From: Longimicrobiales bacterium
GTDB taxonomy: Bacteria; Gemmatimonadota; Gemmatimonadetes; Longimicrobiales; Gaopeijiaceae
DNA: 64,000 bases
Direction of reading: 5' to 3'
Assembly: GCA_965248195.1 (NCBI GenBank)
Contig: CBDFIQ010000002.1
Location: 2,208,001-2,272,000 of the forward strand
Positions 32,072 to 54,674 of the stretch are shown piece by piece (positions within the stretch are counted from its first letter, which is position 1; each line of letters begins with the position of its first letter). Made by a program: the position numbers and the translations under genes. The notes beneath the pieces are model-generated. The model did not search any database and was not told the DNA's origin. It was given only the letters and a program-made list of their open reading frames with translations.

Positions 32072-33232
32072 ATGAAGCATCCACCGTCGGACGGGAGCCG
32101 TTTCGGGACCCTCGCGGTACACGCCGGTCAGGAGCCCGAACCGATGACGGGTGCGATAACGGCGCCAATCTTCCAGACTTCCACCTACGTCCAGCCGGAC
32201 GTCGCCGTACCGAAGCAAGGGTACGATTACGCTCGCGTAAAGAACCCGACTGTAGAGGCGCTCGAACGGAAGGTCGCGGCCCTCGAGGGCGGGACTCGCG
32301 GAGTCGCGTTCTCGAGCGGGCTGGCGGCAATCGAAGCGGTGGTCAAGCGCCTCTCCGCAGGCGATCACGTGGTGTGCGAAGAGAATACGTACGGCGGCGT
32401 GACACGCATGTACACGCGTGTGCTCGCGAAGCTCGGGCTGGAATTTTCCTTCGTGGACACGAGGACTCCGGAGCGGATACGGGACGCGATGCGGCCCAAC
32501 ACCCGACTGGTCCATGTCGAAACGCCCACGAACCCGATGATGAGGATCTGCGATATTCGGGCGGCAGCCGACATCGCACACGAGGGAAACGCCATCCTCA
32601 TGGTGGACAGCACATTCGCGTCACCGTTCAACCAGCGGCCCCTCGATTTGGGCGCGGACGTGAGTATGCATTCCTCCACGAAGTACCTGAACGGACATTC
32701 CGACATCATCGGCGGTGTGCTCGTGGTCAACGATGACGACCTCGCCGAAGAGATTCTTTTCGTCCGGAAATCTTCCGGAGCCGTCCCGGGGCCGATGGAC
32801 GCCTGGTTATGCCTTCGCGGCACCAAAACGCTCCACGTTCGCATGGCCCGCCATAACGAGAACGGATTGGCCGTAGCCGGATTCCTGGAGGCGCACAGCG
32901 CCATCGATCGGGTCATCTACCCGGGTCTGGAGTCGCACCCCCAGCATGAGTTGGCAGCACGCCAGATGTCGGGCTACAGTGGAATGGTGGCACTCGACGT
33001 GAGCGACCTGGCACGGGCCCGAGCTCTGGCCACCGGCACTCGTGTGTTCCAGCTTGCGGAGAGTTTGGGCGGTGTCCAATCGCTCATCAGCGTCCCGGCG
33101 CTTCAGACCCACGCATCGGTGCCGAAGGAGATGCGTGAGGCGATGGGCGTCACCGAGGGCCTGGTACGGCTTTCGGTCGGCATCGAGGAGGTCGAAGATC
33201 TAATCCAAGACCTGGACCAGGCGCTGGTCTGA
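32072..33232 (+). CDS. Cystathionine gamma-lyase/synthase (Cys/Met metabolism PLP enzyme)
   Basis: PIFQTSTY, ETPTNP, HSSTKYLNGHSD, LAESLGGV, RLSVGIE. Confidence 0.92.
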   Translation: MKHPPSDGSRFGTLAVHAGQEPEPMTGAITAPIFQTSTYVQPDVAVPKQGYDYARVKNPTVEALERKVAALEGGTRGVAFSSGLAAIEAVVKRLSAGDHVVCEENTYGGVTRMYTRVLAKLGLEFSFVDTRTPERIRDAMRPNTRLVHVETPTNPMMRICDIRAAADIAHEGNAILMVDSTFASPFNQRPLDLGADVSMHSSTKYLNGHSDIIGGVLVVNDDDLAEEILFVRKSSGAVPGPMDAWLCLRGTKTLHVRMARHNENGLAVAGFLEAHSAIDRVIYPGLESHPQHELAARQMSGYSGMVALDVSDLARARALATGTRVFQLAESLGGVQSLISVPALQTHASVPKEMREAMGVTEGLVRLSVGIEEVEDLIQDLDQALV

Positions 33233-39551: not shown

Positions 39552-40280
39552 TTACGCCCGGATCGCTACGTGGATCGCCGCGATCCCGCCCGTCACCAAT
39601 CGCCACTCGACATTCTTGAACCCGGATTCAGCCAAGAGACCAGCCAACTCGGTGGGTCCTGGGAATTCCTTCACTGATTCGGGCAAGTAGCTATAGGCCC
39701 AGGGGTGCCCAGAAACGACGCGCCCCACGACGGGGAGAATCCGATGGAAATAGAAGTTGTAGAAGCCTCGAAGCACACGGTTGGGCGGGTCTGTGAACTC
39801 CAGAATCACGAGTCGGGCGCCCGGACGAAGGACCCGAGCGAAGGCGGAGAACCCAGCGCGTAGGTCAGAGAGGTTGCGCACGCCGAAGCCGATCGTCGCC
39901 CCGTCGAAGCATGCCTTCGCGAAGGGCAGTCGTAGCGTGTCGCCGCAGATGGGTGTCACGGAAGGGCGGAGCTTGCCGCGCCCTTGGACCAGCATCGGCA
40001 ATGCGAAATCGGTCGCGATCACGGACCCTCGAAAACCGGCCTGCTTCGCCAGCTCCAGACTCAGATCGAAGGTGCCGGCGCATGCATCCAAGTACCGCCC
40101 CGTCTCGCGCTCCTGCCATCGAAGCATCCGGATCGCACGCCGCCGCCAGCCCCGGTCGATGTTCATGCTGAGCACATGATTCAACAGGTCGTACCGCGGG
40201 GCAATTTCCGAAAAGAGTGTGCGGACTTGGTCCTCTCTCTCGGCGCCATGGGAGGGTCTTGCTTCCGGAATTGTCGCCAT
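39552..40280 (-). CDS. ubiE: UbiE/MenG quinone C-methyltransferase
   Basis: FSEIAPRYDLLNHVLS, LDACAGT, FGVRN, YSYLPESV. Confidence 0.9.
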   Translation of the reverse strand: MATIPEARPSHGAEREDQVRTLFSEIAPRYDLLNHVLSMNIDRGWRRRAIRMLRWQERETGRYLDACAGTFDLSLELAKQAGFRGSVIATDFALPMLVQGRGKLRPSVTPICGDTLRLPFAKACFDGATIGFGVRNLSDLRAGFSAFARVLRPGARLVILEFTDPPNRVLRGFYNFYFHRILPVVGRVVSGHPWAYSYLPESVKEFPGPTELAGLLAESGFKNVEWRLVTGGIAAIHVAIRA

Positions 40281-40449
40281 TTGCTCGACCTTTTGGTTAC
40301 TTTTTCCACCTGAAAGCGTGACGCAGTTCGAAGGCGGGGCGGCCGGGAGCCGCGTACCCGGGAAGCATACGAAGTTTCCCGGCCGCACAAACTCCGTGGG
40401 TCGGAGGGCGCCTCCGCCCGGCAGACTCGTGAGGGCGGAGCCACTCCAC

Positions 40450-41040
40450 TTGGATTTCAACACCCAGACGGACAAGGAACTGGCGGCGCTGGCAGCGGCC
40501 GGGAACGAGGGCGCTTTCGCCGAGTTGCTCCGACGTTATGAGCGGCCCGTCTTTTCGCTGATCTATCGCATGGTGCGCGACCGGCCTCTCGCCGAGGACC
40601 TGGCACAGGAGGCGTTCATTCGAGCTTTCAACGCCGTCTCCTCTTACGACCCGCGCTACAAGTTCAGTAGCTGGATCTTCAAGATCGCCAACAATCACAC
40701 GATCGATCATTTGCGACGACGCAAGCTCGACACCGTGTCGATCGACGGCTCGCCCCACGCCCGAACGGCCCAGGAAGAAGAGCAAACACGGCTGGTCGTG
40801 GAATCAACAGACGAGAATCCGCAGGAATATGTGGAGCACCGGGAGCTCGGCGATCAGATCGAGCATGCAATCGGCAAGCTCCGTCCCGAGTACCGGACCG
40901 CCGTTCTCCTGCGCCACGTCGAGGGGTACGCATACGATGAGATCTCGGAGATCATGGGCCTACCTTTGGGAACGGTCAAAACATATTTACACCGCGCCCG
41001 AGGCGAGCTGAAGGAAATGCTCGCGCACCTGACTTCGTGA
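40450..41040 (+). CDS. ECF RNA polymerase sigma factor (SigW-like)
   Basis: AEDLAQEAF, KFSSWIFKIANN..ID.LRR, GLPLGTVKTYLHRAR; start uncertain (40429 or 40450). Confidence 0.93.
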   Translation: MDFNTQTDKELAALAAAGNEGAFAELLRRYERPVFSLIYRMVRDRPLAEDLAQEAFIRAFNAVSSYDPRYKFSSWIFKIANNHTIDHLRRRKLDTVSIDGSPHARTAQEEEQTRLVVESTDENPQEYVEHRELGDQIEHAIGKLRPEYRTAVLLRHVEGYAYDEISEIMGLPLGTVKTYLHRARGELKEMLAHLTS

Positions 41041-41049
41041 GCCCTTTCG

Positions 41050-41077
41050 TGAAACTTTGGAAAACACGCGCCCGTAA
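41050..41077 (+). promoter_or_regulatory. ECF (SigW-like) promoter between the sigma and anti-sigma genes
   Basis: TGAAACTT-N15-CGTAA. Confidence 0.6.
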
Positions 41078-41109
41078 GGTCTTTGGTGAAATCATGAGGA
41101 GTAGATAAC

Positions 41110-42060
41110 GTGGCAAAGAAGCACTCGAAGACACACCTGACCGCTGAGCGGATCCAGGCTTTCCTGGATGGTGCCCTTTCCGGGGACGAGAGGGCCGAAG
41201 TCCAGGAACATGCTACGTATTGTGGACGTTGCCAGGCAGAGGTGGAGACCTGGCAGTTTCTTTATTCCGAGCTCGGGGACCTCCCTCAGCTGAGTCCCGC
41301 ACCGAACTTCCGGGACCGCGTGCTCGCCGGCCTCGACACGGCCGTTCCGGCCGCATCCGGCGAGAAGAGACTGCTCGGATGGTTACGCCGCGGGGCGGTC
41401 CGGGCTGCGGAGCACCTCGACCCCGAGCGGCTTCAGGACTACGTAGAGGGTCTTCTGCCTGCGCGGCACATGGCCAGGGTTTCCGCCCACCTCGATGCCT
41501 GCGGCGTTTGCCGAAGTGATGAGGCGCAGTGGCGGAGCCTCATTCAAGGCGTCGAGAATCTGCCTGTGATGGCTCCCTCGAGCGCCTTCGCCGGCCGGGT
41601 CATGAGCCAGGTCCGGATCGGCCGCCTGGTTCGGCCGGTGGCGGCCAGAACCGCTCGCGGGCGGGCCTGGGCCTGGGCAGGCCGCCTGATCCCGCGAACG
41701 CAAAGGACCTGGGCCGTCATTTCGGGCATAGCCCTCACGCCCGCTACGGTAGTCGCCCTACTCGCGTATACGGTGTTCTCGAATCCCCTCGTGACCCCCG
41801 CGGGTCTGGCGTCCCTCCTCTGGTGGAGAATCAGTGGTGGCGCCACTACGTTGGTGGGTTTCTTGGCAGACGGACTCGTCGAGAGCCCAGTAGCCTTTTT
41901 CGCCTATTCGGTCTTGGATCTCTTGGCCGGTGCGCCGGCGATCACCGGGATGGTCGCCGTCTCTTTCGCCGCCGCATCGGGCCTGGCCGGCTGGGTACTG
42001 TACCGGAATTTGATGACCACACGCACAGTGGATGGAGAATATGCCAGAGCATCTGTTTAA
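41110..42060 (+). CDS. Membrane anti-sigma factor with two zf-HC2 (ZAS) domains
   Basis: HATYCGRC and HLDACGVC, each preceded by an H-L-x-x-E-R helix; C-terminal TM helices. Confidence 0.88.
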   Translation: MAKKHSKTHLTAERIQAFLDGALSGDERAEVQEHATYCGRCQAEVETWQFLYSELGDLPQLSPAPNFRDRVLAGLDTAVPAASGEKRLLGWLRRGAVRAAEHLDPERLQDYVEGLLPARHMARVSAHLDACGVCRSDEAQWRSLIQGVENLPVMAPSSAFAGRVMSQVRIGRLVRPVAARTARGRAWAWAGRLIPRTQRTWAVISGIALTPATVVALLAYTVFSNPLVTPAGLASLLWWRISGGATTLVGFLADGLVESPVAFFAYSVLDLLAGAPAITGMVAVSFAAASGLAGWVLYRNLMTTRTVDGEYARASV

Positions 42061-43357
42061 GGCGATCCGGTTTGCCGGATCGGCACTGCTGATCTCGATC
42101 CTGCCGGCGGCGGTGGTCGGACAGGCTCGGCCGGTCGTATCCAATCAATTGGCAATTTCTCAAACCGAGGCTGCCCTGCACCTCGAGTTCGCCGATGACG
42201 GGACGCTCGAGATCGCGTTGAGGGACGGCTCCGTGATGATCGACGGCGAGGAGCGGGGGAGCTTCGAACAAGGCGACGCCCTCGACACCGCGTGGCGAGG
42301 CCTTCTGAGCGAGATCGTCTCACTCTCGGACGGCCCATTGAGTGAGGCCCTTCGGATTTGGGAGGCTCCCTCTTCGCTGGAGGAGGGAGCGTTGCAGCTG
42401 GCCCAGCTGCTCGATCGCACGCTGGAAGATGCCCTGGAGTCCGACAACGTCTCGGCCTCCGCCGACCCGGAACCGGCGGTCGTGATCGACGCAACGGACC
42501 CGGATCTCAGTCTGAGCCTCCAGGAACTGGCGGACCTATCGGACCGCATCAGACTGGAGATGCGAGAGGAGCTCCGAAGTGAGCTTCGTGACGAACTACG
42601 CCGAGAGCTCAGAAACGCTGGAGAAGAGAGTCGAGGCTACCGGCCCCTGCGTGCGCTCGGGCATGGGATCACGGAGATCATGGGGGGCGTGATCACGTTT
42701 CTGCTTCTTTCTCTGCTCGCGTTGGGAGCCGTGTACTTCGCGAAGGATAACCTCGAAATCGTGGCCGACACGGCGCTGAGGAACCCCATGCGGGCTGGTA
42801 TGGTCGGACTCGCCGGTGCCTTCCTGGTTCTGCCAACCTGGATACTGGGCTGTGTAGCGCTGGTAGCGTCGGTGGTGGGCATCATCGCTCTGCCCTTCTG
42901 GCTATTACTTTTTCCAGTTGCCGTAACGTTGGGAGCTGGGCTCGGCTATTTGTCCGTTGCGAGAAACGTCGGTGAATGGGTGGCCTCCAGGAACATCCGC
43001 AGCCTCGAATGGCTCCGGCCGACCAACACGTTCTACGCGGTCACCGCGGGGATCGGGGCTCTGCTCGCGTTCCCCGTCGCGGCCAGCATCCTCGACATCG
43101 TGCCGTTCTTAGGATTCTTCAGCGGGCTCCTCGCCACGCTCGGGACCATGGCCATTGTGGCCACGTTGCTGATCGGATTCGGAGCGGTGCTGCTGACCCG
43201 GGGCGGACGCCAGACGGATTTCTACCGTGGCGACGATCCCCTCGGGGGCGAGAGATGGGACGACGAGAGTATGTCGGAGGAGGTCCTCGACGCTGAGGAG
43301 TTTCCTGATGAAACCAAGGCGGAGGGAACAAAAACGGGAGATCAGGACGATGCCTAA
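42041..43357 (+). CDS. Multi-pass membrane protein of the ECF operon
   Basis: Signal peptide, acidic domain, ELR-repeat coiled coil, about six TM helices; overlaps the anti-sigma stop. Confidence 0.75.
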   Translation: MPEHLFKAIRFAGSALLISILPAAVVGQARPVVSNQLAISQTEAALHLEFADDGTLEIALRDGSVMIDGEERGSFEQGDALDTAWRGLLSEIVSLSDGPLSEALRIWEAPSSLEEGALQLAQLLDRTLEDALESDNVSASADPEPAVVIDATDPDLSLSLQELADLSDRIRLEMREELRSELRDELRRELRNAGEESRGYRPLRALGHGITEIMGGVITFLLLSLLALGAVYFAKDNLEIVADTALRNPMRAGMVGLAGAFLVLPTWILGCVALVASVVGIIALPFWLLLFPVAVTLGAGLGYLSVARNVGEWVASRNIRSLEWLRPTNTFYAVTAGIGALLAFPVAASILDIVPFLGFFSGLLATLGTMAIVATLLIGFGAVLLTRGGRQTDFYRGDDPLGGERWDDESMSEEVLDAEEFPDETKAEGTKTGDQDDA

Positions 43358-44195
43358 AGGCGTCTCGAGATGGACAGGGGTGGCCTTGGTTCTGGGCCTG
43401 AGCGTCGTAGATGCAGCCAGCGGGCAGAATCGGCGGACGGTCACCATGTCCAGGCAGGTGGAGGACGAGCAAAACCTAGAGGTGAACGTCGAGTACGCGG
43501 CGGGCCGGTTCTCGGTCGGCCCCGCAGGGGCCGGAGTCCTCTACCACATGCAGATCGAGTACGACGAAGGCGTCTCCGAGCCGCTCGCCGAATATCGGGG
43601 CTCTTCGCTGCGGATCGGAGTGGAGAGTCTCGGCCGGCGAGTCCGGCTGGGGGGAGACCGGGCCGGCACGATGGAGCTGGCGCTCTCCCGGGACGTGGCG
43701 ATGGACCTGAACATGGACTTCGGCGCAGTCCGGGCGGAAATCGACCTCGGGGGTATCCCGCTCACTCGCCTGGAGATCAATACCGGGGCGTCGCAGACCC
43801 TCATAGACATCTCGCAGCCGAACCCTGAAACGATGTCCCAGGCCAGCATGGACGTTGGAGCGGCTGAATTCACGGTGCGGAATCTGGGGAATTTGAATAC
43901 CTCAGAGATCGAGATCGACGCCGGAATAGGAGACATAGAACTGGGCTTCACCGGTGAGTGGCAGCAGAACGCGCGAGTGTCGGTAGACATGGGACTCGGG
44001 TCGTTGGTGCTGCGCTTTCCGAGAGGTCTCGGTGTCCGGCTCGAGAAGGACACGTTCTTCACGTCGCTCGATTCCGAGGGCCTCGTCAAGCAAGGCGACA
44101 CATACTACTCGTTGGACTATGACGAGGCCGAGTACCAGATTATTATCGATGTCGACGCCGCATTCGGAAGCATCCGCGTCGCCTGGGTGGATTGA
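43350..44195 (+). CDS. Exported beta-solenoid protein (DUF2154/toast-rack, LiaG/LiaF-like)
   Basis: Repeating units such as xDxGAxxxxID; signal peptide. Confidence 0.7.
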   Translation: MPKGVSRWTGVALVLGLSVVDAASGQNRRTVTMSRQVEDEQNLEVNVEYAAGRFSVGPAGAGVLYHMQIEYDEGVSEPLAEYRGSSLRIGVESLGRRVRLGGDRAGTMELALSRDVAMDLNMDFGAVRAEIDLGGIPLTRLEINTGASQTLIDISQPNPETMSQASMDVGAAEFTVRNLGNLNTSEIEIDAGIGDIELGFTGEWQQNARVSVDMGLGSLVLRFPRGLGVRLEKDTFFTSLDSEGLVKQGDTYYSLDYDEAEYQIIIDVDAAFGSIRVAWVD

Positions 44196-48727: not shown

Positions 48728-49909
48728 TCACCTCAGCCCCTCTAGGGCCTGCCCGAAGTCCTCCTTGAGGTCCTCCACGTCTTCCAGGCCGACAGAAATC
48801 CGCACGAAGCCGTCCGGAATGCCCATGCCCGCCCGCATCGCCTCGGAAAAATGGATGTGGGAGGTGTGGCGTGGCTGCGAGACGAGCGTTTCGACACCCC
48901 CGAGGCTCGGCGCCATGAGAGCCAACTCCAAAGTGGCCGCAAAGGCATCGGCGGCGACGCCCCCGCCCTCGAGTTCGATGGAGAGCATTCCACCGAAACC
49001 CGACAGGATCTCCGACGCCACATCGTGGTCCGGATGCTCCCGTAATCCCGGATAGTGCACCTCGACCACACCCTCGCGACCGAGGAACCAGTGAGCCAGT
49101 TCCATGGCATTTTGGTTATGCTGGGCCACTCGCATCTGGAGGGTCTTGAGACCACGGTCCAACAACCACGCCATATGGGGATCGGGAGCGGGACCATACA
49201 GCTTCATCATGCTCCGGACCCGCTCGATGAGCTCACTCGATCCCGAGACGACACCCGCGACCAAATCCGAGTGTCCGCCTAGATATTTGGTGGCGCTGTG
49301 GATAACCGCACCCACTCCTAAGTCGGCGAAGCGGATGTTCACCGGGGACGCGAAGGTGGCGTCCACCGCCAGCAGAATGTCACGGTCTCGAGCGATCTCG
49401 ATGGGCGCCCGCGGGTCGAAAACCCGGAGTGTCGGGTTGGTAGGCACCTCCAGGAGGAGGACGCCGGTCTGGGGTGTCAAAGCCCGCTCCCAGTCCTCTT
49501 TGTTCTCGGGGTCGATCAGGGTGGTGGTGATGCCCCGTCTCGGCAGCTCGTCTTCCAGGAGCGTCCTCGTTGCCCCGTAGAGGTGCCGGGAAGAGACGAC
49601 GTGTCCCCCGTCGGGAAGGGCGGCGAGAATCGTCATCGTGATCGCCGACATACCGCTCGAAAGGAGCAACCCTGCCTCCGCGCCCTCGAGAGCGGCCATC
49701 TTCTCGCCTACGAGAGCCTGATTCGGATTGTTGCCGTACCGGGAATAGAGAAGCTGGGAAGCAGGCTCACCGGCCCCTCCGACAAACGTAGCGCTCTGAA
49801 CGACCGGCAGAACGACCGGGGCTCCAGGGACGGGCTCGGGCGAACCGGCATGAATTCCGATCGTGGCCGGACGGGGGCCCCCGCGTTCCCCACTCGCCTT
49901 CCCTTTCAT
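48728..49909 (-). CDS. Second Cys/Met metabolism PLP enzyme (cystathionine gamma-synthase / methionine gamma-lyase-like)
   Basis: YSRYGNNP, EVPTNP, HSATKYLGGHSD, SLGGVETL, RISVGLE. Confidence 0.9.
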   Translation of the reverse strand: MKGKASGERGGPRPATIGIHAGSPEPVPGAPVVLPVVQSATFVGGAGEPASQLLYSRYGNNPNQALVGEKMAALEGAEAGLLLSSGMSAITMTILAALPDGGHVVSSRHLYGATRTLLEDELPRRGITTTLIDPENKEDWERALTPQTGVLLLEVPTNPTLRVFDPRAPIEIARDRDILLAVDATFASPVNIRFADLGVGAVIHSATKYLGGHSDLVAGVVSGSSELIERVRSMMKLYGPAPDPHMAWLLDRGLKTLQMRVAQHNQNAMELAHWFLGREGVVEVHYPGLREHPDHDVASEILSGFGGMLSIELEGGGVAADAFAATLELALMAPSLGGVETLVSQPRHTSHIHFSEAMRAGMGIPDGFVRISVGLEDVEDLKEDFGQALEGLR

Positions 49910-49922
49910 GCGGATCCCTCCC

Positions 49923-50507
49923 TCACGAGGTCGCCCCCACCAAGGCACTGAGCGCGTGATAGATGCCGTCGCCGGGGGGCGCGAATACGACGCGACGGAG
50001 CACGAGTTCATCGAGAGCCTCTCGATGATGGGACCCCGGAAACACCTCGGCCACCTCCGCCGCGACGATCTTGCCGCGCCCCTCGAGGACCGTCCAAACG
50101 TACTCCTCCTCCTCCGTCCGCGTTCCCATGAGTGTACAGCACCCGTCACTGCCTTGCGCCACCGCAAGGAGCTCCTGCCGCTCCAACACGGTCTGGATCG
50201 GTTCCTGTAGGCTCTGGCGCACGCCCCGAAAGACGAAGAGGGCATCCACGGGCCGGTCTTCTTCGAGGAATCGCATCAGGAGCTTCGCCACGATCTCGTC
50301 TGCGCAAGAGAAATCCATGACGGTCACGTCCGAAAGGTCGATCAAGGAAAGAGCCGTTCGCGAACTCCCAGCGACCTCCTCTTCGATGGCGAGACGAACC
50401 GCGCGGCCTGTGGGCCGTGTCACCAGGTGAGAATAGAGAGATTCGACAGAGCTACGTAAGACGCGTCCCACGTCGATGGAGATAGGCTCGACCCCTGGCT
50501 CAATCAT
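49923..50507 (-). CDS. STAS-like domain + probable C-terminal winged helix
   Basis: IDLSDVTVMDFSCADE (STAS phospho-loop with Ser); tail VWTVLE.RGKI.AAEVA...ALDELVLRRVV...G.Y resembles a wHTH. Confidence 0.65.
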   Translation of the reverse strand: MIEPGVEPISIDVGRVLRSSVESLYSHLVTRPTGRAVRLAIEEEVAGSSRTALSLIDLSDVTVMDFSCADEIVAKLLMRFLEEDRPVDALFVFRGVRQSLQEPIQTVLERQELLAVAQGSDGCCTLMGTRTEEEEYVWTVLEGRGKIVAAEVAEVFPGSHHREALDELVLRRVVFAPPGDGIYHALSALVGATS

Positions 50508-51393
50508 GATCGTCGACCCGCTCCGGCAGGACGATGTTGATTTGTGTACCCGGAAAATCCGAAAGCCCCTCCTCCAGGGGTGGCGCATCGAACCACTTCG
50601 GGACGTCAGCGATGCGCACGGTCCCGCTACGTATAGAGATCAGGCCATCCCAACGACGAACCTGCTTCCGAATCTGTTGAATGCCCTGCCCCCGTCCCGA
50701 GTCCGGGAAGCGCGTAAGGCCATGAATGAACGCCGCTTCCAGCGCAGTCACATCCCCCCACCGATCGGCAAACCGTGCTGAGTGCTCGTCGGAAAGAGAC
50801 CCGCGGAATCCCCTTCCGAGATCGACAACCGAAATGATGACCACGTGCCGGCCCAGGCGCTTCGACCAGTTGTAGGACTGGGCGGCGACCCAACCCGGAG
50901 CCTCGGCATGTTCGAGAATGTTTTGGCAGACCTCACTCAGGATCACGCTGAACTGCACGACCGAGCTCTGCGGATGGCCTAGGGTATTGGAAAGGATCGC
51001 GCCCGCCCGTTTCTGAACGCGTTCCACCACATCATGGACGTCGCTGTTCGTCGTGATGGGCGTGATCTCCAGGAGGACGTCGGACTCCCCCGGCGAACGC
51101 CGGGGGAAGGGCGTCCCCGCCGCGAAAATGCCCTCGGCCGCCTGGAAGAAGCCCATGCGGCCCAAGTAGCTCTTGACGTCGCCCGCAGCGCCCAGTTCCA
51201 GAACTGCTGCCTCACCGCTTCGGTCCCGCCCGACGGAGCCGGCCGCAAGGAGGCCCACCATACCGTTGGGACCGACCCAGCGGAGGTGCCGTCCATCGAA
51301 AAGGACCTTCTCGCTCCCGGCCTCCACAACCTCGGCAAAAAGCGCATCGAGCGTCTGGAAGTCCAAGGATGCCGGGAGGTCGATGACCCTCAT
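50500..51393 (-). CDS. Degenerate STAS + GHKL ATPase (SpoIIAB/RsbW-type Ser kinase)
   Basis: N-box SEVCQNILEHA, G1 DLGRG, G2 GRGQG; no His-phosphoacceptor helix; the ATG overlaps the lepA stop. Confidence 0.75.
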   Translation of the reverse strand: MRVIDLPASLDFQTLDALFAEVVEAGSEKVLFDGRHLRWVGPNGMVGLLAAGSVGRDRSGEAAVLELGAAGDVKSYLGRMGFFQAAEGIFAAGTPFPRRSPGESDVLLEITPITTNSDVHDVVERVQKRAGAILSNTLGHPQSSVVQFSVILSEVCQNILEHAEAPGWVAAQSYNWSKRLGRHVVIISVVDLGRGFRGSLSDEHSARFADRWGDVTALEAAFIHGLTRFPDSGRGQGIQQIRKQVRRWDGLISIRSGTVRIADVPKWFDAPPLEEGLSDFPGTQINIVLPERVDDHD

Positions 51394-53195
51394 CAATCGT
51401 CGCCGAGCTTGAGCACGGCGAGAAACGCCTCCTGGGGAATCTCCACCGAGCCCACCTGCTTCATCCTCCTCTTTCCGGCTTTCTGCTTCTCGAGCAGCTT
51501 CCGTTTCCGCGTGATGTCGCCCCCGTAACACTTTGCAGTCACGTTCTTGCGGAGTGCCTTGACGTTGCTTCGTGCCACGATCTGCGTCCCGATCGCGGCC
51601 TGGAGCGCCACCTCGAACTGTTGGCGAGGAATGAGCTTCTTGAGGCGGCGGACCAAGTCGCGGCCATAATCCATCGCCTTGTCCTCGTGGATGATGACCG
51701 AAAACGCGTCTACGGGATCGCCATTCACCAGGATATCCAGCTTGACCAGGTCGCCTGGCCGAAACTCCAGAAACTCATAGTCCAGGGCGGCGTACCCACG
51801 CGTTCCGCCCTTTAACTTGTCGTAGAAGTCGAGTACGATTTCGGCTAGAGGCAACTCAAAATCGATCTCAACGCGTTTCGGGTCGAGATATTGCATTCCC
51901 CCGAAAACTCCCCGGCGGTCATGGCAAAGCTTCTGTACGGAGCCGATGTACTCCGCGGGACACACGATACGCGCCTTTACGATCGGCTCCGCGACATCCA
52001 CGATGCGGCCCCGTTCCGGAAGCATCGTGGGGTTCTCCAGAACGACCTGGGTTCCGTCGGTCAGGGTGACGTGGTACTCCACGTTAGGCACGGTGGTAAT
52101 GAGCTCCACGCCGAACTCCCGGTCCAGCCGCTCCTGGATGATTTCCATGTGCAGCAGTCCCAGGAATCCACAACGGAAGCCGAAGCCGAGAGCAACCGAG
52201 GTCTCCGGTACATAGTTCAGGCTCGCGTCGTTCAGCTTGAGGCGGTCGAGGGCGTCGCGCAGGTCTTCATAGTCGTCGGCGTCAGTAGGGTACAGTCCGG
52301 CGAAAACCATGGAGTGTACATCCTTGTAGCCCTTCAGGAGTTCCGAAGCCGGGTCGGCCGCATCTAAAATCGTATCGCCCACGCGCGTGTGCGAGACGTC
52401 CTTGATCGCGGCGATCACGTAGCCCACCTCACCCGGTCCGAGCTCGGGCTGCGGGACACGTCCCAGGCGCATGACGCCCACCTCGGTGACCTCATAACTC
52501 TGGTCGACCGCGCCGAAGGTGATCAACATGCCAGGCCTCAGCACACCGTCCACTACACGAACGTTGGGAACCGCCCCCTGATATTGATCGTACGACGAGT
52601 CGAAGATGAGCGCCCTGAGGGGCGCCTCCCGATCGCCGCTCGGGGGCGGTACGTCACGGATCACGGCCTGCAAGATCGGCTCGATCCCGATCCCTTCCTT
52701 AGCGCTCGCCAACAGGATGGTCTCCGGATCTGTTCCGAAGAGGTCCGCGAGTTCCTCCCGCCGTCGTTCAGGCTCCGCCCCCGGAAGATCGATCTTGTTG
52801 ATCACGGGGATGACCTCGAGGCCGGCGTCCAAGGCGAGGAAGAGGTTCGAGAGCGTTTGGGCTTGCACTCCCTGTGTGGCGTCCACAACAAGAATCGCGC
52901 CCTCACACGCCGCCAGTGAGCGGGACACCTCGTAGGTGAAGTCGACGTGCCCCGGGGTATCGATCAGGTTCAGAACATACGCTTCGCCGTTCTCGGCGTT
53001 GTACACCATTCGGACAGCGTGGAGCTTGATCGTGATTCCGCGCTCCCGCTCCAACTCATTGGAGTCCAGAACCTGGTCCCGCATGTCTCGCTGGTCCAGG
53101 GTCCGAGTGGCCTCGAGCAGTCGATCGGCAAGCGTCGACTTGCCGTGATCGATATGCGCGACGATACAGAAATTGCGTATGTGGCCAAGGTTCAC
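51393..53195 (-). CDS. lepA: Elongation factor 4 (LepA)
   Basis: [57 protein letters not shown]. Confidence 0.98.
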
Positions 53196-53291
53196 GTAGG
53201 AGGCGATTCCGCTTCGAGGGTGGCGTCCGGTGGAACGCTACCAAGATAGTCCGGTGGAATCCGCCGCAGAAGGAGGGTTCAGCGAGTCCAG

Positions 53292-54674
53292 CTAACGGGG
53301 TCGACGTCTCGGAGGCGGTCTCGTGGCTCCTCTGTTTGCCCGGGGCGTCCCGGGGCGCTCTCGAGGCGCCGCACGGGCTGTGGACGACCCGTTGGACCGC
53401 TCCGGAGACCGACGGGTCGACGGGGCCGATCGCGACCCGCCGGATGGTTCGGCAGGTGGACGCGTCGACGGGGTTCGAGAGGGGGACCCGGCCCTGGGAT
53501 TGTCCGGTCTCCGCGTGGAGGGCCGATTCGCCTGGGGCCCCCGGAGTGGCTGCGTCGACTTCGACCTTGGCCTTTCGGATGGTGGCCGGGTGCCGCGGCT
53601 CGGAGCGGCCGACCGTCGCTCCAGGCTCGGACGCCTCGGTCCCCGGGCCTCGACCGGTGGCGCGGTCACCCGTCCGCCACCCGTGCCCACCTGAGGTGCG
53701 CCAGGCCGGCCCGATGCGTCGGGGCGACGGGTTGGGGTCGTACGTGGCACGACGGGTGGTGACGCCACCCGACCACTGCCCGCACGCCGACCGGTCCTCG
53801 GTCGGTTGGCCAGAGGAGGGGGATCGTCTCTCCGACCCTGCCGCACCACGGTGACCGGCGTACCCGGATCACCCGCAGCCCGCTCCTTGAGCTCGAAACG
53901 CGGGCGTACCGGGCTGCGAGGGCCCACCATCACGACACGGTTCGTCCGGTAACGGTAGGAGGGATAGAAATACGGGTCATCGTAGACGACCACCCTGAAA
54001 TTCACGCATGTGTACCGGTAGGGATTCCATGTGCTGTACGGGCGGAACCCGTGGCACTGATAGCACAAGAACCGGGGGAACTCGTGGGCGCTTCCCACGT
54101 TGTAGGAAATGAAATCCAGGCCGTAGTCCACCAATTCCCAATTAGGGACCAGGCGGGCGACGTAATCGTCCATGGCGACGTAGGGATCCGAGTGCACCGT
54201 ACTTCCTACGGCGGAAAGATCCCATCCACCGTCGTAATACGAGTACCTGAAATCCGAAAGATCGAACGGAGTCGGCGACGTCACGACGAAAAAATACCCG
54301 ACTCCCGGCCGGTCATCGACGTTCCAATAAGCAGAACGGGGGAAGAGCAACCGGTAATCCCGATCCGCCCTCGCATAATGATTTTCCGTGGGGGAGCGCG
54401 GGTACAGCATCCTCGTCGTACCGTCGGTGTCGATTTGAAGGATCGCGACATATGCATCGGCGTTGGTCCGGTAGTAGATGCGAACGCGGTCGCCCGCCTC
54501 CAGCACCGGATCGACTCCACGGTCCAGCCAGATCCGGGGCTCCTGGACCTGTTGCACCTGCACGTGGGAGGCGGACCGGTCCAAGCCATGCGCATCACCG
54601 GCTGGCTCCAGCGCACCGGAGCCCAGGCCCGGAGCAAGTACAGTCACTATGGTGACGGCCCCCACGATCCACAT
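53292..54674 (-). CDS. Exported DUF4384-domain protein with a CxxCH motif and a long Arg/Pro/Ser-rich disordered tail
   Basis: GDRVRIYYRTNADAYVAILQIDTDG..RMLYP; CYQCH; low-complexity C-terminus. Confidence 0.8.
   Translation of the reverse strand: MWIVGAVTIVTVLAPGLGSGALEPAGDAHGLDRSASHVQVQQVQEPRIWLDRGVDPVLEAGDRVRIYYRTNADAYVAILQIDTDGTTRMLYPRSPTENHYARADRDYRLLFPRSAYWNVDDRPGVGYFFVVTSPTPFDLSDFRYSYYDGGWDLSAVGSTVHSDPYVAMDDYVARLVPNWELVDYGLDFISYNVGSAHEFPRFLCYQCHGFRPYSTWNPYRYTCVNFRVVVYDDPYFYPSYRYRTNRVVMVGPRSPVRPRFELKERAAGDPGTPVTVVRQGRRDDPPPLANRPRTGRRAGSGRVASPPVVPRTTPTRRPDASGRPGAPQVGTGGGRVTAPPVEARGPRRPSLERRSAAPSRGTRPPSERPRSKSTQPLRGPQANRPSTRRPDNPRAGSPSRTPSTRPPAEPSGGSRSAPSTRRSPERSNGSSTARAAPRERPGTPRANRGATRPPPRRRPR

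Follow-up and report, generated by a model that had tools for sequence, protein, structure and literature searches.

The genes K and S, which overlap within the 64,000-nucleotide stretch of DNA analysed here (the window), are read as encoding a domesticated post-translational phospho-switch, an interpretation that we hold with a probability of a little under 60%. By sequence, K and S belong to the CapK/VapK-CapS superfamily, and the pair is a near single-copy, vertically inherited core feature of class Gemmatimonadetes. Kinship with CapK/CapS and VapK/VapS had been put forward in an earlier note on this DNA and is supported here. CapK with CapS, and VapK with VapS and VapC, are described by Chambers et al. 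(EMBO J 2026, PMC13373217); there, CapK/CapS is a DNA-damage switch over bacterial immune genes, and structures are given for CapS (PDB 9Z71-9Z73) and VapK/VapS/VapC (PDB 9Z7O). Known pairs of this kind accompany defence loci in a patchy distribution, whereas Gemmatimonadetes, a class abundant in soil and sea, retain theirs as they would a housekeeping gene.

The locus and its two proteins

Four consecutive genes, lepA, K, S, and a lyase gene, lie on the minus strand of the window. The first, lepA (EF-4; 51393..53195; TIGR01393, 938 bits against a cut-off of 534), is probably the first gene of an operon with the other three. One base of its TGA is shared with the ATG of K (50500..51393), which encodes an HTH-less STAS-GHKL serine kinase of CapK/VapK type (297 aa). 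The stop of K overlaps the start of S (49923..50507; 194 aa) by 8 nt, and S carries a CapS-type, DUF4325-like STAS domain followed by a degenerate winged helix. After 13 nt, the lyase gene begins with an ATG at 49909 (48728..49909; PLP Cys/Met-metabolism lyase, PF01053, E = 7e-112; no model above cut-off in an NCBIfam profile search). This gene order and its overlaps are as the earlier note had described them.

A strict sigma-70 scan upstream of lepA found zero promoter sites. A candidate -10 hexamer of a lepA promoter, TATCTT, lies at 53243..53248 on the minus strand, and visual inspection showed similar TA-x-x-TT hexamers ahead of lepA in many loci. The expression data, one run recorded as RNA (6% of words) with contigs mostly from relatives, reveal neither transcription nor co-transcription. 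PADLOC gave one partial match for K, to the GHKL part of the DrmA model, and one weak match, and none for S or the lyase. About 8 kb from these genes, the other strand carries a putative ECF sigma/anti-sigma cluster, annotated from motifs.

K starts straight at a STAS strand, with no N-terminal HTH, and this STAS domain stands in place of a His-box domain (profile match to the anti-anti-sigma factor 4HYL, E = 6e-4). The kinase motifs are E154-x3-N158, D191-x-G-x-G195, and G233-x-G-x-G237, and E154, N158, D191, G193, G195, G233, G235, and G237 are invariant in 59/59 sequences. The codon of the N-box residue N158, equivalent to CapK N218, lies at 50920..50922 (minus strand). The model of K (pLDDT 90.5) has a GHKL fold; a degenerate STAS domain and a GHKL kinase without a His box had already been described in the earlier note. 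A PDB sequence search with K returned zero matches, and no K relative was found among 76 pattern matches in viral contigs.

In S, the motif M64-D-F-S67-C-A-D-E71 contains the predicted phospho-acceptor Ser67 (codon 50307..50309, minus strand) at the position of CapS Ser54. The conservation expected of this serine was borne out in 59/59 full-length S proteins, a count that omits the S of locus L079 (mis-called start) and that of L069 (no tail); alignments A1 and A2 were built from 58 of 61 loci. Invariant residues are L28, T30, R31, G34, R38, D57, D65, S67, C68, A69, D70, and E71. A redox role for Cys68 was considered and set aside, since outside relatives without an adjacent lyase gene conserve the residue just as strictly, and since CapS has a hydrophobic Phe at the aligned position. 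The model of S (pLDDT 94.5) resolves into a STAS fold at residues ~5-125 (Z 8-9 to RsbS/SpoIIAA) and a winged helix at residues ~130-187 (Z 7-8 to small wHTH domains), the C-terminal fold that had been anticipated. S alone was without a Pfam match; a PDB sequence search gave one match, taken as chance, and Foldseek gave zero matches at E<=0.001, with CapS absent from the fold-search matches listed. Profile matches to 9Z71 (E 0.11) and 9Z72 (E 0.94) cover the wHTH part only.

Modeled together with ATP and Mg, K and S dock with an ipSAE of 0.84, against 0.05 for the best control. Between runs, at least 94% of contacts are shared, partner pLDDT is at least 89, and S67 contacts E154, Q157, and G237 inside the active site of K. 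The docking mark is reached by 116 of 157 solved pairs and 2 of 215 mismatched pairs; the pass may nevertheless reflect memory of SpoIIAB-SpoIIAA by the modeling.

Inheritance and gene neighbourhood

The pair was found in all 184 genomes from eight Gemmatimonadetes families, with K in every one and a single S match in 183. Window-type queries gave no match in 15 genomes of other classes. Of two genomes from a further family, f9, the first yielded no more than a distant K homologue (E 4e-25), which sits next to a short STAS gene, and the second yielded none. The K tree holds 18 of 23 well-supported lepA splits, with a patristic Spearman correlation of 0.84 (53 genomes), and dN/dS over seven within-genus pairs is 0.055-0.096 for K and 0.061-0.079 for lepA. 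Since neither gene is broken and purifying selection acts on both, the pair is not a chance arrangement. That it is a vestigial module carried inside an essential operon is highly improbable: the loss of operator and DNA-binding features would fit, but the pair is retained in 184/184 genomes with lepA-like dN/dS and invariant catalytic and acceptor residues, and it is kept although flanking genes have been lost or moved.

S lies directly 3' of K in 58 of 61 loci, a cyclophilin gene being inserted in the remaining three. The two genes overlap or are at most 10 nt apart in 54/61 loci, and the overlap therefore leaves no room for an operator spacer.

Linkage to the flanking genes is looser. In 57/61 loci, lepA is encoded no more than 8 kb upstream on the same strand, yet it directly abuts K in only four, all from the window's genus; at other loci, genes spanning 1-5 kb intervene (GT9/GT2 glycosyltransferase, ROK kinase, PfkB-like kinase), and the abutment arose by loss of these genes. 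The lyase is downstream in 47/61 loci and was not found in 14 (two of them with just ~2 kb of downstream DNA), including every locus of families f6 and f7. Upstream of lepA in 55 loci there is no conserved operator, the best palindrome being GC-rich and present in 10/55, compared with 5-7 in shuffles.

These counts bear on the possibility that S represses the lepA-K-S-lyase operon in the manner of CapS and so ties EF-4 and sulfur amino-acid metabolism to DNA damage. Overlapping genes, probable co-transcription, and the frequent presence of lepA and lyase speak for such a repressor, but the confinement of lepA-K abutment to one genus, the lack of a shared lepA operator, the missing f6/f7 lyase, and the loss of recognition residues make it distinctly improbable. 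We propose instead that lepA and the lyase are co-transcribed passengers. Of the domestication suggested in the earlier note, the separation from defence genes held in 184/184 genomes. Control of lepA and of sulfur metabolism is not supported, in view of the rarity of abutment, the lyase-free loci, an S that lacks the CapS DNA residues and wing, and the failure to find a conserved lepA operator.

Two links to the SOS response were also rejected. A candidate LexA box, TTCGG-N6-TTCGG, occurs at no shared position in 61 loci, arguing against SOS control of the operon, and 197 of 201 genomes, every K/S carrier among them, have a lexA match above cut-off, which argues against the pair as a LexA substitute.

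The conserved neighbours are lepA, GT9, ROK, PfkB, lyase, and ftsE/ftsX-like genes, with no immune or stress operon; ftsE/ftsX/envC-like genes lie 3' of the pair in three families. A classical partner switch, in which K would be an anti-sigma factor in the SpoIIAB/RsbW mode, S its antagonist, and a sigma factor encoded elsewhere the output, is quite unlikely. The folds do resemble SpoIIAB/SpoIIAA and RsbS, K is more conserved than S, and the window's genome has two SpoIIE-type phosphatase matches. Against this, no sigma gene is among the conserved neighbours, no SigB/F/G-type sigma exceeds the cut-off in that 92%-complete genome (TIGR02980; best 130 bits vs 234), and the sections of PMC13373217 consulted report no binding of a sigma factor by CapK/VapK.

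Outside relatives and the winged helix of S

The nearest outside relatives of the pair are in Nitrospirota, Entotheonellia, Brocadiae, and Deltaproteobacteria, sampled as a few redundant clades, and a tree rooted on one long branch places Gemmatimonadetes inside them. HTH-less outside pairs, at loci L173-L252, occur in Thermodesulfovibrionales, Entotheonellia, Ca. Kuenenia, and Deltaproteobacteria, as judged from record names. By sequence features these look like true CapS systems. Their S recognition helix keeps N159 (22/27), T163 (26/27), N167 (27/27), and K170 (27/27), and the wing keeps G, G, and R in 24, 26, and 23 of 27, respectively. On the 3' side of K, their loci carry a TTGACA promoter together with the palindrome TTCAATTGAA; TTCAATTGA(A) is present within 900 nt after K in 45/56 loci, and 28 of the 36 regions that precede S contain it. 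A scan for the promoter-plus-palindrome pattern gave at least 120 matches, which may be chance in AT-rich DNA. Their cargo is variable: ribonucleotide reductase, UvrD-nuclease, restriction-modification, or an AbrB-PIN pair.

At Gemmatimonadetes loci the palindrome, allowing one mismatch, was found in 2/61 and 3/80 cases, none between K and S. TTCAATTGAA is absent from the window's whole genome, which is uninformative because just 0.66 occurrences are expected. The winged-helix region of the window's S (residues 131-186; 49950..50117, minus strand) keeps the fold and has lost the recognition residues and GG wing; counted from sequence, its net charge is -6. Median tail charge is -2 in Gemmatimonadetes (n=59) versus +5 in outside relatives (n=28). 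The Gemmatimonadetes recognition-helix columns are variable or acidic, with the commonest residue at just 19-29%, and 58/59 sequences have gaps where the wing would align. Where K identity is 45-55%, the wHTH is 25% identical, compared with 48% among outside relatives. In four genomes of one genus, S stops right after the STAS domain while K is intact. We infer that Gemmatimonadetes S has lost DNA binding, and the window's S is predicted not to bind 53196-53290.

The winged helix is under purifying selection (dN/dS 0.08-0.29) and Arg171 and Arg172 are kept in 44 and 48 of 59 sequences, so non-specific or re-specified nucleic-acid binding is conceivable. S might bind nucleic acid non-specifically or at lineage-specific sites, in a nucleoid-type or RNA mode, with phosphorylation switching binding by breaking the dimer. 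Besides the kept fold, the arginines, and conserved W138, this would accord with profile matches to EutK-C, Z-alpha, and TFE wHTH domains and with a W-x3-R-A turn seen by eye in several f4/f8 rows of the alignment. We consider it unlikely, as the tail is mostly acidic, has its wing deleted, and is missing altogether in the four genomes noted above.

Proposed mechanism and comparison with known systems

As a domesticated phospho-switch, the pair would descend from a CapK/CapS-type DNA-damage regulator fixed once, early in the class, inside a string of housekeeping genes, and would have been inherited vertically since. The stages of its domestication can be read from outside relatives with operator and wing, through their loss in Gemmatimonadetes, to the disappearance of the wing domain in one genus. 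K is predicted, with good support from sequence and model, to transfer phosphate from ATP to Ser67 of S. By analogy with CapK and VapK, there is perhaps an even chance that the trigger is single-stranded nucleic acid in the STAS/GHKL groove of K, lined by Trp39, Tyr174, Trp176, Arg179, and Arg182. Phosphorylation would then free or reshape the Ser67 face, acting on a self-dimer or a bound partner. The output is probably protein contact and not operator repression, because S has lost its DNA-reading parts and the operator spacer; the reading predicts a new phospho-regulated partner protein in a phylum that has received little study.

In PMC13373217, ssDNA is proposed as the CapK/VapK trigger, with CapK Trp68 and, as proposed, VapK Phe54 stacking on it. 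Matched by eye, as were all residues compared with CapK, CapS, and VapK, Trp39 of K (codon 51277..51279, minus strand) falls at the Phe54 position and is W in 53 and F in 6 of 59 Gemmatimonadetes sequences and F in 27/27 outside relatives. The Trp68 position corresponds to residue 9 of K (S in 32/59, T in 8/59). Since an aromatic is normal at the Trp39 position of ordinary STAS domains (Tyr in 4HYL) and the Trp68 position is Ser/Thr, these residues argue only weakly for ssDNA sensing by K. More tentatively, the once-captured regulator could have become a LexA-independent phosphorylation checkpoint, triggered by single-stranded nucleic acid and governing some core cell process through protein contact. 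Division is one candidate process, because ftsE/ftsX/envC-like genes follow the pair in three families.

Compared with SpoIIAB/SpoIIAA and RsbW/RsbV, the pair likewise joins a GHKL serine kinase to a STAS substrate with equal docking geometry in the model, but K has an extra STAS domain, S has a wHTH, and no cognate sigma was found. The outside pairs share the motifs LVTRxTG and D(F/Y)SCADE, while the basic CapS-like wHTH, promoter, palindrome, and variable cargo set them apart; TTCAATTGAA is offered as a testable operator for this HTH-less branch of CapK/CapS, whose members come from Nitrospirota, Entotheonellia, and anammox bacteria. With CapK/CapS the pair shares the order of kinase gene then STAS-wHTH gene, a STAS-GHKL kinase with the N-box Asn (N218 = N158), the acceptor Ser on STAS helix 2 (S54 = S67), and a basic hairpin after the N-box strand (CapK K237/K239 region). 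Unlike CapK (HTH-STAS-GHKL), K has neither an N-terminal HTH, reported to be dispensable in CapK (PMC13373217), nor a W68 equivalent, and S lacks the CapS DNA contacts N145, K151, and the G169-G170 wing. In CapK/CapS, palindromic operators sit between the kinase and substrate genes and ahead of the downstream operon, whereas the window pair has neither; CapK/CapS lies patchily next to immune operons, whereas Gemmatimonadetes K/S is core, single-copy, and vertical.

VapK/VapS/VapC resembles the pair in its HTH-less STAS-GHKL kinase of ~300 aa, in the aromatic at the F54 position (W39 in K), and in a STAS substrate proposed, in the same article, to work by protein contact and not on DNA. It differs in that no PIN/VapC or other toxin gene is adjacent to K and S in 61 loci, and in that VapS carries a short inhibitory helix where S has a winged-helix tail. 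If the checkpoint reading is true, its output would be of a third kind, next to repression by CapS and toxin neutralisation by VapS.

Gene order around the K/S pair

The window carries lepA, K, S and the lyase gene in succession on the minus strand, at 53195-51393, 51393-50500, 50507-49923 and 49909-48728, respectively, where the earlier note had placed them. lepA and K overlap by 1 nt, K and S overlap by 8 nt, and a gap of 13 nt precedes the lyase gene. The GC content of this region is in line with the rest of the window. LepA passes TIGR01393, and the lyase, a PLP-dependent Cys/Met lyase, matches PF01053 with no NCBIfam model over its cut-off. K showed only weak HATPase_c matches, while S was without a domain match in the same profile scan. 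Structure models built from 58-row alignments agree with the domains proposed earlier: K folds as STAS and GHKL (pLDDT 90.5) and S as STAS with a winged-helix tail (pLDDT 94.5).

We compared 61 loci of about 16 kb each from eight families. The usual order is lepA, a GT9 or GT2 glycosyltransferase, a ROK kinase, a PfkB-like kinase, K, S and lyase. In families f4, f5 and f8, genes resembling ftsE, ftsX, envC and nfo, named from sequence motifs, come after the lyase gene. lepA lies upstream of K in 57 loci, yet adjoins it in only four, all from the window's genus; five further genomes of that genus show the same adjacency. Intermediate orders also occur, namely lepA-pfkB-K (L034 and L271) and lepA-ROK-K (L041, L044 and L049), and the PfkB-like gene of the window's genome is located apart, at C2:336141-335149. 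The lepA/K overlap thus arose recently through deletion and is a poor guide to what the pair targets. The lyase was found in 47 of the 61 loci and in no f6 or f7 locus. K and S themselves are split by a cyclophilin gene in three of four f2 loci.

Several neighboring features were also recorded. Upstream of lepA (53292-54665, minus strand) lies a gene for a DUF4384 protein whose long tail is rich in Pro and Arg; it occurs in only 6 of the 61 loci. A cluster of ECF-sigma-like, zinc-finger anti-sigma-like and two membrane/secreted genes, annotated from motifs (40219-44195, plus strand), is convergent on the K/S locus from about 5-8 kb away. A second Cys/Met PLP lyase paralogue lies at about 32093-33226 (plus strand; 36% identity), with a third copy on contig C1. 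In family f4 (L079-L090), a TA-T/C-A/C-TT hexamer sits some 7 nt 5' of the lepA start and suggests a leaderless mRNA.

Distribution and inheritance

S was found in 38 of the 41 relatives, among them all 29 genomes of high quality. Across the phylum sample, whose S, K and LexA tallies count one unpublished genome (G189) that contributed no sequence, S occurs in 184 of 201 genomes, comprising every genome of families f1-f8, and was found in neither of the two f9 genomes nor in any of the 15 from other classes. K has the same distribution, plus one distant f9 match. Exactly one S match was obtained in 183 of these 184 genomes, and two K matches in a small minority. Eighty close K relatives bear names almost all from Gemmatimonadota/Longimicrobiales, which indicates the class. 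For 53 genomes, 18 of the 23 well-supported splits in the lepA tree also appear in the K tree, which groups the genomes into the same families. Within the genus, dN/dS is 0.055-0.096 for K and 0.06-0.08 for lepA; in S it is 0.05-0.17 over the STAS part and 0.08-0.29 over the tail. The K/S pair thus behaves as a core module with vertical inheritance.

Two groups of divergent sequences were also seen. One f9 genome (L395:1157-2352, plus strand) has a short STAS gene followed by a distant K homologue, in reverse order and with no winged helix. Nine divergent K-like representatives (P0022, P0026, P0027, P0036, P0076, P0083, P0131, P0047 and P0127) are nested among Gemmatimonadetes rows, several without the N-box Asn, and may be pseudokinase paralogues or assembly errors.

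DNA-binding features of S and its relatives

A profile search returned 3967 K-like proteins. By name, the closest non-Gemmatimonadota group belongs to Deltaproteobacteria, Nitrospirota, Entotheonellia and Ca. Kuenenia/Planctomycetota, and we took its best 80 metagenome loci as an outside set. Outside S shares STAS motifs with Gemmatimonadetes S and keeps a CapS-like recognition helix (N-T-S/A-G/S-T-R-L-L-N-L), a GG wing and a basic tail (median charge +5). The spacer 3' of the outside K holds TTGACA, a -10 box and the palindrome TTCAATTGAA. Of 36 regions upstream of S, 28 carry the palindrome and 23 an additional half-site; among the 56 loci whose DNA extends far enough, 45 have the palindrome no more than 900 nt from the K stop. 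These counts come from a few redundant clades and are not independent samples. These loci (L173-L252, e.g., L179:6900-7160, L230:6830-6900, L243 and L252) represent an HTH-less CapK/CapS branch with promoter and palindrome after the kinase gene. Among the clusters listed, their cargo includes ribonucleotide reductase, a UvrD-nuclease, a restriction-modification pair and an AbrB-PIN pair. Several have TA pairs, methylases or R-M genes lying between K and S, much as at an insertion hotspot.

In Gemmatimonadetes S, the recognition-helix positions vary, 58 of 59 proteins have lost the wing, and the median tail charge is -2 (-6 in the window's S). When K divergence is matched, tail identity is 25% against 48% outside, roughly half the conservation. 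In 54 of 61 loci, automatic start calls put S in overlap with K or at most 10 nt from it. Upstream of lepA, no common palindrome stands out in 55 loci. In four genomes of one genus (g67), S stops just past the STAS domain, with the adjoining K intact. Sequence comparison shows that the DNA-contact features of CapS and the spacer have been lost in Gemmatimonadetes. A K+S tree rooted with a Nostoc plasmid pair places Gemmatimonadetes, a group with support 1.0 on a long stem, within the operator-bearing group; because the root branch is long, the sequence of changes is drawn chiefly from parsimony with CapS. Since the S tail is still under selection and R171/R172 are kept, residual nucleic-acid binding by it is possible.

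Proposed mechanism and comparison with CapK/CapS

Sequence features indicate that K is an intact kinase and that S carries an invariant acceptor, S67, in line with the phosphorylatable serine noted earlier. In a K+S+ATP model, S67 is predicted to dock in the K active site, contacting E154, Q157 and G237, with the invariant LVTRPT loop inside the interface. The model scored 0.84 versus 0.05 for the best control, a pass that could stem from resemblance to solved SpoIIAB-SpoIIAA. K would thereby phosphorylate S, whose output would be a protein contact. Single-stranded nucleic acid may activate K, as suggested by Trp gained at 39, 168 and 176 and by the retained R179/R182, although STAS domains commonly carry an aromatic residue at position 39 and the position of CapK Trp68 is not aromatic in K, aligning with S9. 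No S partner was identified, and no SigB/F/G-type sigma factor scored over cut-off in the window's genome. A small Molydop_binding-like (double-psi barrel) gene lies directly 3' of S in all 15 f5 loci (among them L069:7681-8001, minus, and L065:8501-8827, plus), which makes its product a candidate partner of S in f5.

LexA is present throughout the genomes that carry K/S. A direct repeat, TTCG-N7-TTCG (L254-L262 upstream of lexA; G000 C2:1213271, C2:708229 and C1:1485445), is a candidate Gemmatimonadetes LexA box, found in 10 of 11 lexA upstream regions. It also precedes genes that look AlkA-like and macro-domain-like by sequence, and it did not appear among the matches listed in one literature search.

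The literature covered, which excludes most subscription journals, yielded nothing on the K/S pair, and the words "Gemmatimonad" and "lepA" are absent from the main text and 12 of 14 supplementary files, including three datasets, of the paper on CapK/CapS and VapK/VapS (Chambers 2026, PMC13373217). Residues were matched by eye to its Table S2. CapK N218 corresponds to K N158, the K237/K239 hairpin to Q172-Y174-x-W176-x-K178-R179, VapK F54 to W39 (the table numbering being offset by 5) and CapS S54 to S67. The layout of the outside K-S spacer resembles that of the capK-capS spacer with its narrow palindrome. The CapK HTH is missing from K, as in VapK. At the kinase step, K/S resembles the CapK/VapK switch, but it departs from CapK/CapS in HTH, DNA-contact residues, operator and context.
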